Shown here: piece after piece, positions 36,001 to 42,000 of the stretch
How positions within the stretch are numbered: position 1 is the first letter of the stretch
Layout of the letters: every line of letters starts with the position of its first letter
From: Pseudobdellovibrionaceae bacterium
GTDB lineage: Bacteria > Bdellovibrionota > Bdellovibrionia > Bdellovibrionales > Bdellovibrionaceae
DNA length: 64,000 bases
Assembly: GCA_039810425.1 (NCBI GenBank)
Contig: JBDHWW010000009.1
Coordinates: 19,446 to 83,445 of the forward strand
Direction of reading: 5' to 3'
Position numbers: made by a program

Positions 36001-39000
36001 TGCGATACTTTTACCCGAAGTAATAATACCGAGCACTTCTCTCGGCATCATTCCCTTGCGGAAGCTGTATTCACCACGCTTTACTTGATGACGTTGATTG
36101 GTAAACCGCGCGTACATAGAAAATCCAAACGCGTTCTTAATCAAACCCTGAGCCTCAAGCTCTTTGGCAATGGCATTGAAACTCTGGCCTGGCTTCACTT
36201 CATAAATCACTTCGGTGCCGTCAGAACTTGGTGCGGTATTTAAAAACTCATAAGCAAGGTAGCCGGCAGCGGTGCCGCCGGCAACGATCAAACTCATAAC
36301 CGCAATCAGAGCAATCAATGTCACTTTCTTCATAGACTGATTCCCGGAAGCATTTTGGTCTTATCAAACGGCGTCGGGTCTTCAAGGCTCGCCACCGGAA
36401 CTGTGCAGTATTGAATTGCGAAATCTGCTGACGGTCTGTCGTTGCCAGATTTGCCCATGCCACCAAATGGCAAGCGGGAGCTCGCGCCGTTCGTGGTGCG
36501 GTTCCAGTTCAAAAGACCCACGCGGGCTTTCAGCAAGGACTCTTCATACAACGACTTATTCTTCGAGAACAAAGCCATCACCAAGCCATAACCCGTTGAA
36601 TTCACCATATTCAGTGTCTCATCGAAGTCACCGCTCTTGTAGATTGCCACGTTCGGACCGAAGATTTCACTCTTTTGATAGACTGAGTTTGGGTCAAACT
36701 TGCTCACCAAGTGGATGCTTGGAGTCACATAGAAACCTTTTTGCTTCAGATCCAAAGACTTGCCACGCATCATCGATTCGCAGCCCTCACGGTTTGCGAT
36801 CTCTTGAAAGCGGATGTATTTCTCAACCGCAGCCGCATTGATCAAAGAACCCATGAAAGGGTTTTCACTCCAGTGACCGATCGTGAGCTTCTTTGCAGCT
36901 TGATAGAACTTTTCAGTAAATTCGTCCGCGATCTTGGGGTGCAAGATCACGCGGCTTGTGCCTGAGCACCGTTGACCTGTCGTCAGGTAAGCCCCGATTA
37001 AAGTTTCGTAGATCGCTTTATCCAAATCCGCATCGTCCCAAACAACTGTCGCATTCTTGCCGCCCATTTCAAGGGCCAAGATTTTCCAATAGTGCGTCAT
37101 GGTCTCTTGCTTGATTTTTAAACCAACCTCATAAGAGCCCGTGAAAAGAACTCCATCCACGTTTTCATTTGCCGCCAAACGACGGCCGGATTCACCATCC
37201 CCTTGAACCAAATTGAAAACACCCGGTGGAAGGCCGGCTTTCTCGATTAACTCAGCCATGTACTGGCCTACCGCAGGAGTTTGCTCGGAAGGCTTGAACA
37301 CCACGGTGTTTCCCGAAATCAAAGCGGGAATAATATGGCCGTTTGGCAAGTGCGCTGGAAAGTTGAACGGACCCAGCACCGCCATCACACCCCGGCCTTT
37401 GTGACGAACCACGCCCTCAACACCAGGAAGAGCATTGGGAATGTGCGTTTCGTTAATAAGTTTGAGCGAGTTGCTGATGGTGATGTCGATTTTGTTTCCG
37501 AGATTTTTAGCCTCAGTCATGGCGTCCCACAATGCCTTTCCGGTATCACGGGCAATAATCTGCGCCATTTGTTCTGTGTGCTTGTCGAAGATGTCTTTTA
37601 ACCTCAGAAGATAACTCTTTCTGTCATCTAAAGATAAACGAGTCCACGGAATAAAGGCCTTCTTAGCCGCCAAACAAGCTTCATCGATATGATCGTACCT
37701 GAACTTTACTGTCATGATTTGGTCGTTCAAGTCACCCGGACTGACGTCTTTGAATTCGCCGTCACCTTTTTCCACAGGAACAAAGCGACCCGCGATAAAG
37801 TCCCCTTGATATTTAATTGGATAGATTTCCATTATGTTTGTTCCTTTCTCTTGGAGTAGTTCCACGGTGAAATAAACACTGCATCGCCAATTTCGGCGCC
37901 GAGAGCTTCGCGAACCTTTGTCGGAATCGCCACTTCGTCACCCCGTAAATCATAAGATACCAATGCCGCGCGGAAAACCTCTCCGCCGGTTCCTAACATC
38001 CCCTGCTCTTTGAAAACCGCATCTTTAAATTCCTGCAACTTCACACGACGGCCCAGCTTCACCGGCAAAATATCTTTTGTGTTAGAACCATAATGAGGTC
38101 CTCCGTCGAAGGGGTCAACCTCGTCTAAATATTCAAAGCCAATGCTCTCAAGCAAATGTTGCGCTGGCTTGGTTGCTTCACCGACACGGCCCAAAACCAG
38201 ACGGGCTTTACCGTCGAGCAGCGCTAAATAAATATCATCTTTAGGGAACAGGCTTTCGATGAATTCCTTATGGCTTTGGCTCAGGAGATCGGCCTCTTGA
38301 TAGGGAAGGCCCGTAAAGCGGCGGCCTAAAGCTTCCCAGAATTCACTGCGGCCTTCTTCCGTGAGGGGCGGGGTCAGTTCACAAAGCACACGGTCTTCAA
38401 ATTTTTCTGGGTGGAGGCCCATATATAGAAAGCGCGCGAGACTGATTTGTTTACCGAGCTTCTCAGGGCGGCGGCGATAGGTTTTATCAACTAGCAAACC
38501 GCCTATTTCTGTCGGACCATCAAAATCCAGCTGGAAGCGCAAAACTTGATGGATAAATCCGATTCCCAAATCCTGGCTAAACATATCTCTTTTCAAAATT
38601 TTAAAGAAACAATGTGGGACCTCGTCGGTACCGTGTTTGGCGATAACAAGCGAGCTTCCGACAATCAGTTTCTCTTCAACGTCCTCTAAAACAAACAAAT
38701 ACTCCGCCTGATCCTTCGGAAGTTTTCCGGCAAAAGACTGTTCGCTGCGATCAATCTTTTGACTGAGGACTTTTCGATTGCCCGGCAAATTCAGCAGAGA
38801 AAACTGCTTTGCCAAATCAACGAGTTGGCTCAGGTCATCGTGTTGAACGGCTCTAATAACAAAACTCATAAGCAAAACCTTTCAATCACACGTTTATAAA
38901 ATTCCACGGCTTTTTTCAGATCCTCAACAGCGACATGTTCCGAGGGTGTGTGAACATTCCCCTCGCGCTTGCCCGGGCCAAAGCACAAACACTCAATCCC

Positions 39001-42000
39001 CGTTCTGGAGAAAATGCTCGCCTCGTTGGTTGACGGCTGGGTCGTCAGGCTCTCGGCCAATCCCATACTGCGAAGTTCATCGCGGCAGCCCTTCACCAGC
39101 ATCGAAGTTTCATTCGTGCGGTAAGGTTTCTTATAATCCGTGACCCGAAATTGCGAACCGTTGGTTTCGCACACTTGCCGCAACTTATCCATCCAGCCTT
39201 CATAGATCTCATTCGTGATCACCGGAGGCACGCGGCACGAACCGGCAAGCAAGACATGATCTTGATAGGTGCGGATCAAACCAATGTTCAGCGTCGGCTC
39301 TGAAGGGTAAAAATCCTTATCCACATGTTTTAAAAATTCTTTTTCCAGGGATTTTATAGCCTCGAAGATATTCACAAGCTTAGTTACGATTGATTTTGTT
39401 GTATTCGAAACAATGTCGATCTCCAGCAACGCATGGCTTGGAACGGAGTTGTAGTTCACTCCGCCGTCAATCTCCATCAAGGTCACGGAATCCGGCAACT
39501 GCTGCAGATACTGAAGCATTTTAGAAATCGCACTTTCGCCAAGATGTGGAGTTGATGAGTGCGCGGCTTTGCCGATAAAGAGTTTGCTCTGCGTGGACGT
39601 ACTTTCTTTGAGATTGTGTTCTTTGCGATAATCAACCTCTTCGCTCTCAAACGGAATACGCACTTCCACCGAGGCGAAGCCTTTTGCGGCATTAATCAAT
39701 TTCAAATCGCTCGGCTCACCGATGAGCGCCATCTTCGCGGCAATTTTATTTTTACGAATTAACCGAAGGGCTCCCTGCATGCCGAGTTCTTCACCGTACG
39801 TGCCAACTAAAACTGGCGGCAGCTTCCATAGACGATTCACACCGAATGACGCCAGTGCTTCGAGCTTGCACAAGAAATCAAGCTTCACATCGGCTGCGCC
39901 CAAACCATAAATGTTTCCATCCATGATCGTGGCATCAAACGGATTACACTCCGTGTGGGTCCAGAGCGCGAACGGTCCTGGGTCCACGGTGTCTAAATGA
40001 GTTTGCAGCAGGAATTCCAGCGGCGGACGCTCAACTACGGGGCGGGCGATCACATTGGCGTGTTCCGTATCGCCCACAAAGTCTGTCTGTAATTCGACCT
40101 GGAGACCTTTCACACGACAAAGCTCCGCCACGAACTCAGCAGCTTCTTTATTGCCGTGAGCGGGCGTGCTGTCGATCGAGATGAGTTTCCTGCAGGTCTC
40201 AATAAAATCCAATCAAGCTTCCCAACTAAATGCCTTCAAGAATCGATTTTTCAATGATCTTGATCGCAAGGTCAATTTCCGTGTCCTGAATAACCGCCGG
40301 AACCAAGAAACGAACGCGCACCGGATCTTTACCGCAAGTAAAGCCGATCAAACCATTCGCGTAGAACTTCTTCGTGAGTGCATCGACTTGTTCCTTCTTG
40401 CCGTCAAAGGGCGTGAAGGCGATCATTAAACCCATGCCGCCGGCGTCTTGGACCTTGCCTTTGCAAGTCGTTGCATTCAACTCGTTCAATTTTGAAATGA
40501 AGCGGTTGTGGATTTGCATGATACGCCCGTTTTTACCGAGGTATCCTTCTTGAAGCATATCAAGGATTTCAATACCAACACTCAACGAGGTTGACGAGCC
40601 TGAGAATGTACCGGCGATCAAACCAGGTTTTGGATTGTATTCTTCTGTGTAAAGAGTGCAGCCGACTTGGGCGGTTTTCGCCAAAGTGCAGATGTCAATG
40701 TATTGGCCGATACCCAGGGTTTCGAAAGCGAATAGTTCCCCTGTGCGGGTGAAAGTTTGCACCTCGTCCGCCCAAACAGCGATACCTTGTTCTCTGCAAA
40801 ACTCGAGCATTGGCACAAAGAACTCACGAGGTGCCGCTTGATAACCGCCCTCGCCGAGCATGGGCTCAAACGCAAACGCGCAGATATTTTTTCCGTGCTT
40901 TGCAACGTGCTCTTTCATTGTTGCAAGGGCCTTGGCACCGCTTTGTGGATCGTTCTTGTCGTAAAAAGGAATGCGCAGAACTTCGTTATAGTCTGGCAGG
41001 CCTTGTTTATAAGCGGGATTGTCCGTCACTTCGGCCATCATCGTTGAACGGCCGGCAAAGGCATTTTTGAAACTCATTACCAAGCGGGCCGGAGAATTTT
41101 TTTGACGTGCCATTTTAAGCGCACTTTCATTCGCCATCGTTCCACAAGTTGAAAGCCACGCATATTTCAAACGGCTGTTCTTGCCCGCCAGTTGTACGAT
41201 TTTCTCACTGAAGATTTCATACTCACGATTCGGCTGCAAGTTACCTTGAGTAATAATGTCAGAAATCGCGCCACGAACAGCGGCCTTCATCACGCGCGGG
41301 TTTCCGTGACCCATTAAGTGAATACCGATACCGTTAATCAAATCGAGTTTGACACTTCCATCTTCAAGTTCCACGAAAGGACCACGTCCCGCACCCGTCC
41401 CGACATAAGGATAGTGCAAAGGCCGACCACGGAATTGACCAACTTTATCGAACCACTTCTTTCCCGCGTCGACAAACTCCGGCTGAGGGGCTTGTGGTCC
41501 TTTGATTTGCTCATTAATATTCGTTACTTCTTGAACGAGATCTTTAATGAGACTTTCAACTTTTGGAGATTCCGCGATTTTACGCCCAACAAGAGAATTC
41601 ATTTTTAACCTTCCATTGGTAATTGACTGATTTTCGCAGTTTAGTACAATTTCCCAATCATGTCTTTGTTATTAAAAGTTCTATTTATATTCCTGGCTTT
41701 CATACCATCAGTCTACGCTGAAGAACCAGCAACGACGCAGCCCACAGCCGTCGAGCGTGAGGCGGGGACAACTAACGCTGCACCTCAAGACAAAAGCCCC
41801 GAAGTTCCTGCAGCGTCCGCACCTGAGCTGAGCTTTGAAGAATACTTCGGTCGCGGCACAAAGAGTTATCAAGAGAAGAAGTTCGAAGACGCGACTCTGA
41901 ATTTCGAAAAAGCTCTGGACCTTCATCCGGATAGCGCCACCGTGTTAACGGATTTGGGTCTTAGCTACTTCCAATTGCAAAAGAAGGGCTTGTCGGTTGC

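Follow-up and report, generated by a model that had tools for sequence, protein, structure and literature searches.

The canonical arginine succinyltransferase (AST) pathway is encoded by astCADBE in E. coli and aruCFGDBE in Pseudomonas, and its AstB reaction releases 2 NH3 and CO2. The locus described here shares with it the AstA and AstD orthologs, an aminotransferase and a deacylase in one operon, and the same intermediates would be formed. However, other families appear to have taken the places of AstB, AstC and AstE, a hydrolase unlinked to the operon would release the guanidino group as urea, and the operon runs into mltG. Urea release followed by transamination and oxidation to glutamate is also common to the arginase pathway (RocF, RocD, RocA), but here the intermediates would be succinylated and no arginase was found in the genome. 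The hydrolase proposed here, UH1, has the fold (TM 0.83–0.89) and metal ligands of the ureohydrolases GpuA (PDB 3NIP), proclavaminate amidinohydrolase (PAH; 1GQ6), GbuA (3NIO) and agmatinase SpeB, with 35–46% identity, but forms a separate clade with residues of its own that tracks AstA and AstB. PMC11836541 describes PAH as releasing urea from an N2-substituted arginine derivative. The M20 deacylase of the operon shares its fold and zinc ligands with ArgE, DapE and the PRK07338 hydrolase; unlike ArgE and DapE, it is 448 aa long with an enlarged lid and falls under all cut-offs, and its orthologs are often degenerate.

Operon layout and absent enzymes

Positions 36330–41602 on the minus strand of the window, that is, of the whole 64,000-nucleotide stretch of DNA that was analysed, are filled by four ORFs in the order aminotransferase, M20, astA and astD, followed by mltG. 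None of the four proteins reaches the NCBIfam cut-off of its closest family. The first gene (40226..41602, minus strand) encodes a class-III (omega) PLP aminotransferase (195 bits to PF00202, below every NCBIfam cut-off) with the PLP lysine K309, R185 and E246/E251, and the second (38866..40212, minus strand) encodes the ArgE/DapE-like M20 deacylase (PF01546 and PF07687). These are followed by a single-subunit AstA arginine N-succinyltransferase (37832..38875, minus strand; 31% to E. coli AstA), which is a PF04958 homolog (324 bits) though under the TIGR03244 equivalog cut-off. In the alignment, the position of E. coli AstA His229, which is not conserved, holds Gly in this protein. The fourth gene (36330..37865, minus strand) encodes the AstD succinylglutamate-semialdehyde dehydrogenase, for which PRK09457 was the best family by 184 bits (470 vs 286 for the next ALDH family), slightly under its cut-off, and the catalytic motifs E266 and C300 were found. 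The true starts are likely ATG 38869 for astA and ATG 37832 for astD.

As M20, astA, astD and mltG (35263..36333, minus strand; TIGR00247 over cut-off) overlap at ATGA/TAATG junctions, with ATGA between astD and mltG, mltG was considered part of the unit. It is translationally coupled to astD and co-transcribed, its function is probably unrelated to the operon, and it lies downstream of the operon in most of the order loci read. Promoter and terminator scans gave no signal above chance level.

The survey's finding had listed an AstC-like aminotransferase, M20, AstA and AstD. All four are present, but the aminotransferase, with 28% identity to E. coli AstC and 104 bits against a cut-off of 610, cannot be called an AstC ortholog. 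It belongs to a family of its own, was found in 39/40 order loci read, and is inferred to fill the AstC role (succinylornithine transaminase). The adjacency of astD, claimed for every AstA locus, was seen in 19 of the 20 read, with genome G003 as the exception.

The claim that this genome (G000, 99.9% complete) has neither AstB nor canonical AstE was borne out: no AstB was found at E<=10, and the E. coli AstB and AstE queries had no match by blastp or phmmer. Three over-cut-off PF24827 matches were short and N-terminal, both of the two scanned being MpaA-like M14 proteins, and no AstE-like protein was found in G000. Searches of this genome for arginase, arginine deiminase and a native ornithine source were equally negative. 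An arginine deiminase or DDAH-type enzyme was rejected as a substitute for AstB, as none was found; arginase was rejected because it is absent here and has no complementary pattern with AstB. The assembly also contains a canonical dapE, an ornithine carbamoyltransferase and a second M20, but these probably come from contaminating DNA and were disregarded (G+C 0.62–0.68 vs 0.49; GC3 0.84–0.87 for dapE and ornithine carbamoyltransferase).

The M20 deacylase and the last step

The M20 protein lies below every DapE/ArgE cut-off, as had been noted (best 130 vs 298 bits), and retains the two-zinc site and general base (H72, D108, E141, E142, E166 and H421). Its predicted structure (pLDDT 91) is closest to the folds of E. 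coli ArgE and DapE (TM 0.58–0.67). That it fills the AstE slot is plausible here and in the family of this genome, where 36/38 sites are complete, but was overstated for the order, in which the M20 is often degenerate or missing while AstA stays. M20 is absent or degenerate in 51 of 121 scorable AstA-positive genomes, the gene being missing from 11 AstA-positive genomes, and an AstE-like protein occurs in only 9 of the 51.

The M20 might instead be largely a structural or relic partner, with the M14 enzyme at dapD or an AstE-like protein cleaving succinylglutamate even here. The active site is complete in only 64/128 orthologs, and in none of 32 in family f6 or of 7 in family f3, yet the gene is kept in the operon; in family f10, AstE-like proteins accompany 4/5 genomes without M20. 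Against this, G000 has no AstE-like protein, the site is intact almost throughout its own family, and completeness in family f2 follows AstA (10/10 with, 0/12 without). Over all genomes, complete sites were found in 63 with AstA and in 0/17 truly without it. Moreover, in L452, a 67% G+C metagenome contig, the same operon slot holds a different M20 family, PRK07338. This alternative was thus judged unlikely. The M20 is likely the succinylglutamate desuccinylase (AstE role) in this genome and family, not order-wide, and in other families of the order something other than M20 would perform the last step. M20 genes in such operons call for caution, being often catalytically degenerate.

UH1 as candidate substitute for AstB

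Three ureohydrolases are present in the genome, as had been counted. One of them, UH1 (G000:C10:68790-69728), is annotated as agmatinase and lies beside mutY, unlinked to the ast operon. It has the ureohydrolase fold, and its Mn ligands (GGDH, DxHxD and DxD) are invariant in 22/22 sequences. Members of the UH1 clade are 56–90% identical to one another and about 40–44% to other ureohydrolases, and carry the clade-specific residues K18, R72, H162, H169 and R213. UH1 passes the agmatinase model TIGR01230 (201 vs 174), but another ureohydrolase lies near speA. Its closest solved relatives, guanidinopropionase, PAH and guanidinobutyrase, take acidic guanidino compounds. A literature search on the AST pathway in the Bdellovibrio group and on succinylarginine-cleaving ureohydrolase activity found nothing relevant, and no enzyme with N2-succinylarginine ureohydrolase activity.

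The proportions given earlier for AstA (23/31) and AstB (2/31) held in the larger sample of order genomes (123/151 and 13/151). In the presence/absence profile, which covered UH1 as the only one of the three ureohydrolases, the 123 AstA-positive genomes had either UH1 alone (111) or AstB alone (12), and none had both or neither. Both were lacking in 24/28 AstA-negative genomes; exceptions include UH1 without AstA in G007 (100% complete) and G043, and AstB without AstA in G036. About 8 independent swaps between UH1 and AstB were mapped on the M20 tree, and the AstB copies are mutually only 43–60% alike, save one congeneric pair. UH1 adjoins mutY in 19/24 loci, including all 4 of family f3; in G015 of that family, its slot beside mutY is occupied by astB.

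Most genomes outside the order lack UH1, and a second ureohydrolase clade seems to replace it there (10 genomes; clade picked after the fact); no in-operon hydrolase was found among 20 neighbouring ORFs scanned in other orders. In L452, a UH1 nested inside the clade (support 0.998) is part of a cluster of M20, astA and astD, where it stands tail-to-tail with the astD, which scores over its cut-off; the 10.7 kb examined contain no astB. This is a transferred copy in an unrelated astB-less cluster.

UH1 could also be an atypical arginase acting first, after which AstA would succinylate ornithine and the operon would be an ornithine succinyl route. That order would equally make AstB redundant, the P. 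aeruginosa AOST accepts ornithine, the TIGR03243 name covers both substrates, and AstA deviates at His229. However, UH1 is not simply an arginase, because arginase coexists with it in 21 genomes, whereas AstB never does, and its score against the arginase model TIGR01229 is 92 bits (cut-off 228). In addition, UH1 was lost together with astA in four lineages, most of which keep the aminotransferase and AstD, and a separate arginase is carried by 14/17 AstA-less genomes. The arginase-first order was considered improbable. It is UH1 acting on succinylarginine to which the guanidino-removing step can probably be assigned, and there is strong support for the survey's suggestion that a ureohydrolase replaces AstB, with complementarity in 123/123 AstA-positive genomes. 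The pathway on ornithine, its other suggestion, is not needed, as the searches of this genome for arginase, for arginine deiminase and for a native source of ornithine were negative. Thus, with UH1 standing in for AstB, the pathway appears to be rebuilt, not shortened as the survey had proposed.

Diaminopimelate synthesis and the proposed route

The M20, with the aminotransferase, could mainly be the missing DapE/DapC of diaminopimelate synthesis, merely housed in the ast operon. Genes dapA, B, D, F and lysA are native to this genome, but a canonical dapE is not, its sole match sitting on a 62% G+C, 3 kb contig that resembles contamination; canonical DapE was found in 0/150 other genomes, and DapD in 143/151. 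Moreover, the M20 ortholog of B. bacteriovorus 109J is labelled succinyl-DAP desuccinylase, and DapE folds rank high among the structural matches. However, M20 is not present and intact wherever DapD occurs in the absence of another DapE: 10/25 genomes tested lack it altogether yet keep DapD, and AstA-less genomes keep DapD although their M20 has lost ligands. An M14 enzyme, found in 146/151 genomes, is the neighbour of dapD in 29 of the 30 best loci. Published Tn-seq data for B. bacteriovorus 109J list ND for dapA, B, D, F and for the M14 gene but give fitness values for M20. A primary role in diaminopimelate synthesis was hence rated quite improbable; the M20 is probably not the DapE, the M14 enzyme beside dapD fits better, and a DapC side role of the aminotransferase is possible. 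Succinylation of another amine such as lysine or putrescine, with no need for AstB, is very improbable. In its favour, the top PDB sequence matches of the aminotransferase are GABA transaminases, and the Tn-seq data give ND for astA as well as for speA and the agmatinase linked to it. Against it, the lysine 6-transaminase model gives only 93 bits, and the occurrence of exactly one of AstB and UH1 in every AstA-positive genome would be left unexplained.

A whole succinyl route with replaced enzymes is the reading we regard as likely, with genes, motifs and distributions observed and every substrate inferred. AstA would convert succinyl-CoA and arginine to N2-succinylarginine, which the unlinked, binuclear-manganese UH1 would cut into N2-succinylornithine and urea in place of AstB. 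The operon aminotransferase and then AstD would yield N-succinylglutamate, from which, in this genome and its family, M20 would free glutamate and succinate. Lineages losing astA have also lost UH1, mostly have a true arginase and presumably keep the aminotransferase and AstD for free ornithine; AstA-less relatives probably use the arginase pathway.

The Tn-seq data link the operon to fitness. In 109J, astD mutants drop to 0.34–0.50 (about 60% loss) during predation, the UH1 ortholog is dispensable for predation (W 1.6–2.5, noisy) and M20 is not clearly needed (0.5–1.2). A simple linear path fails to explain astA, which is ND.

With slightly better than even confidence, we propose that three of the five AST enzymes in Bdellovibrionota are non-orthologous, that they include a new N2-succinylarginine ureohydrolase with at least two origins (UH1 in Bdellovibrionales and another clade in other orders), which was repeatedly swapped with AstB and is transferable into foreign ast operons, and that AstA is perhaps near-essential for prey-free growth. 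UH1 is thus a named candidate for an activity that the literature search did not find. If this is true, a conserved 'agmatinase' would be re-annotated throughout predatory bacteria, and a gap would be closed in the use of prey arginine by these amino-acid-feeding predators, with two arginine nitrogens leaving as urea.

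The operon and the genome around it

The four genes at 36330–41602 of the window are encoded on the minus strand and followed by mltG. According to Pfam and NCBIfam, they specify a class-III aminotransferase, an M20 peptidase-family protein, AstA, and AstD, and each of the four scored below the NCBIfam cut-off of the family closest to it. Stop and start codons overlapped between the M20 gene, astA, astD, and mltG, and the named relatives were Bdellovibrionales. This operon represents a genuine and conserved version of the AST pathway. Across the order, the AstA (astA, 37832–38875) column of E. 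coli His229, which we take to be a catalytic residue, was occupied by Gly, Ser, Ala, or other small residues. Outside the order, AstA was found in 92 of 111 genomes of the phylum, and most of the 20 loci read had this operon in whole or in part. In another order, G176 and G205 had two astA copies (L410–L413), each with part of the operon and one nearer the E. coli type.

The survey's finding that the genome has three ureohydrolases and neither AstB nor AstE was borne out: searches of the whole genome under study (G000, 99.9% complete) detected no AstB and no canonical AstE. The ureohydrolases were a GpuA/SpeB-like protein on contig C10, annotated as agmatinase (UH1), an agmatinase-like protein on C2 near speA, and a HutG-like protein on C27. 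None of the three was an arginase, and neither an arginine deiminase nor a DDAH-type protein was found in G000. Matches to dapE, ornithine carbamoyltransferase, and a second cytoplasmic M20 lay on 3–5 kb contigs of 62–68% G+C, against 49% for the genome, and these contigs are probably contamination. Contigs above 55% G+C (C107, C121, C129, C134, and about 40 other small ones) totaled approximately 154 kb; they are likely contamination and the source of the false dapE and ornithine carbamoyltransferase matches.

Elsewhere in the window, a methyl-accepting chemotaxis protein gene (33368–35130, minus strand) appears broken into two ORFs that overlap in different frames (34039–35130 and 33368–34051), which we attribute to a frameshift or an assembly error. 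The plus-strand cluster at 45582–51477, with TadE-like, CpaB, secretin, and fused CpaE-ATPase genes, is presumably Tad/Flp pilus-like, judging from motifs.

The M20 deacylase as a proposed substitute for AstE

Every query was run on one set of 151 genomes from the order (at least 85% complete, G000 included). AstA was present in 123, one of them a contig-end fragment confirmed on reading the locus, and the M20 gene was in the operon of 112 of these. In the window M20, the general base and five zinc ligands are intact, and the fold resembles that of ArgE/DapE with the lid enlarged. Among 128 full-length orthologs (two contig-end fragments excluded), the active site was complete in 64: 36/38 in the family of the window genome, 18/24 in f12, 10/22 in f2, 0/32 in f6, and 0/7 in f3. 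Of these 64, 63 came from AstA-positive genomes and the remaining one from G108, whose contig stops just past the M20 gene; the site was complete in none of 17 orthologs from truly AstA-less genomes. Within f2, it was complete in 10/10 orthologs with AstA vs. 0/12 without. This tracking fits a desuccinylase serving AstA.

The M20 was absent or degenerate in 51 of 121 scorable AstA-positive genomes, and AstE-like proteins occurred in 9 of those 51 compared with 4 of the remaining 70; therefore, the last pathway step is unexplained across much of the order. The proposal that the M20 fills the AstE slot is likely for the family of the window genome but does not hold generally. Divergent AstE-like proteins of about 320 aa (L294–L302 and L304, except L299) were present in 17/151 genomes, including 4/5 of f10, an M20-less family.

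An obvious rival candidate function for the M20 is DapE of the order, as DapD was present in 143/151 genomes, canonical DapE in none except on the suspect G000 contig, and the ortholog in B. bacteriovorus 109J is labeled as DapE. However, 10 of 25 genomes, picked mostly for ortholog absence, had no M20 at all, while an MpaA-like M14 gene was found in 146/151 and, of the 30 loci scoring highest, 29 had it next to dapD. This M14 gene, located in G000 between lysA and dapD (C20, about 14621–15280, plus strand), is a candidate non-orthologous DapE. G145 and G149 had dapD without the M14 gene or any M20.

Published transposon fitness in strain 109J

In the Tn-seq study of 109J (PMC6561027), dapA, dapB, dapD, dapF, the M14 gene, speA, its linked ureohydrolase gene, and astA were marked ND, which is defined as "not determined" for a different table only; none of astA, dapF, and the M14 gene appears in the essential-gene list. 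Polarity on dapD may underlie the M14 result. The fitness value W was 0.34–0.50 for astD across four predation conditions, 0.51–1.19 for the M20, and 1.6–2.5 with a large spread for the mutY-linked UH1 ortholog, while the operon aminotransferase gave erratic values; the fitness table contains no urease-named gene. Accumulation of the aldehyde could account for the astD defect. The combination of an ND astA and a dispensable UH1 lacks an explanation and argues against a strictly linear role in catabolism.

The UH1 ureohydrolase as a proposed substitute for AstB

UH1 (E ≤ 1e-75) was found in 114/151 genomes and AstB in 13/151. The 123 AstA-positive genomes had either UH1 only (111) or AstB only (12), never both or neither, whereas 24 of the 28 AstA-negative genomes had neither, three had UH1 (G007, G043, and G108), and one had AstB (G036). 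As related genomes are not independent, the labels were mapped on a FastTree of the 128 M20 orthologs, which includes 10 of the 13 AstB genomes. Eight changes were required, AstB tips neighbored UH1 tips, in one case inside a single genus, and UH1 and astA were jointly lost in four lineages. Eleven AstB proteins shared 43–60% pairwise identity, except for one congeneric pair (92%), and 45–55% with E. coli AstB, as expected for repeated gains. In 21 genomes, UH1 was accompanied by an arginase-like gene, and no genome combined it with AstB; thus, it overlaps functionally with AstB and not with arginase. Arginase-like genes (L272–L276, L281) were often accompanied by a GNAT-like and an acyltransferase-like gene, an arrangement that presumably resembles ornithine-lipid synthesis; this context may explain arginase in AstA-positive genomes.

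In a small test outside the order, six AstA-positive, AstB-less genomes had a second, distant ureohydrolase clade, two genomes with AstB lacked it, UH1 had a 43% relative in one genome, and an AstA-negative genome showed no more than a weak match. This uncharacterized clade from other Bdellovibrionota orders (L435–L439, about 355–390 aa) is a possible parallel AstB substitute, and a lead only, because it was chosen after being seen.

Guanidinoproclavaminate is an N2-substituted arginine. Proclavaminate amidinohydrolase, which frees urea from it (PMC11836541), was among the nearest solved relatives of UH1 by sequence, together with guanidinopropionase and guanidinobutyrase, and the fold was consistent. 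The UH1 clade is distinguished by several basic and histidine residues (20–22 of 22 inside, 0/65 outside), which could bind two carboxylates. Among the papers listed by a literature search that stopped short of subscription papers and bioRxiv supplements, none was relevant to the pathway, group, or activity.

In G000, UH1 lies outside the window beside mutY (C10, 68790–69728, minus strand). Of 24 loci read, 19 had UH1 next to mutY, among them all four of f3, and in G015 (f3) astB occupied the UH1 place directly upstream of mutY. One of 80 metagenome loci (L452, 67% G+C) carried a UH1 copy 65% identical to that of G000, nested inside the UH1 clade (support 0.998) and retaining those clade-specific residues that were checked. 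This copy and an over-cut-off astD, itself part of a cluster of PRK07338 M20 hydrolase, astA, and astD, were arranged tail-to-tail, and astB was not found in the 10.7 of 14.7 kb examined; L452 is a single case, and astA occurred in none of the other loci. Both positional cases agree with the distribution of UH1 in place of AstB. The strongest new point is that a specific "agmatinase" clade behaves genetically as AstB, and UH1 probably has a new enzyme activity.
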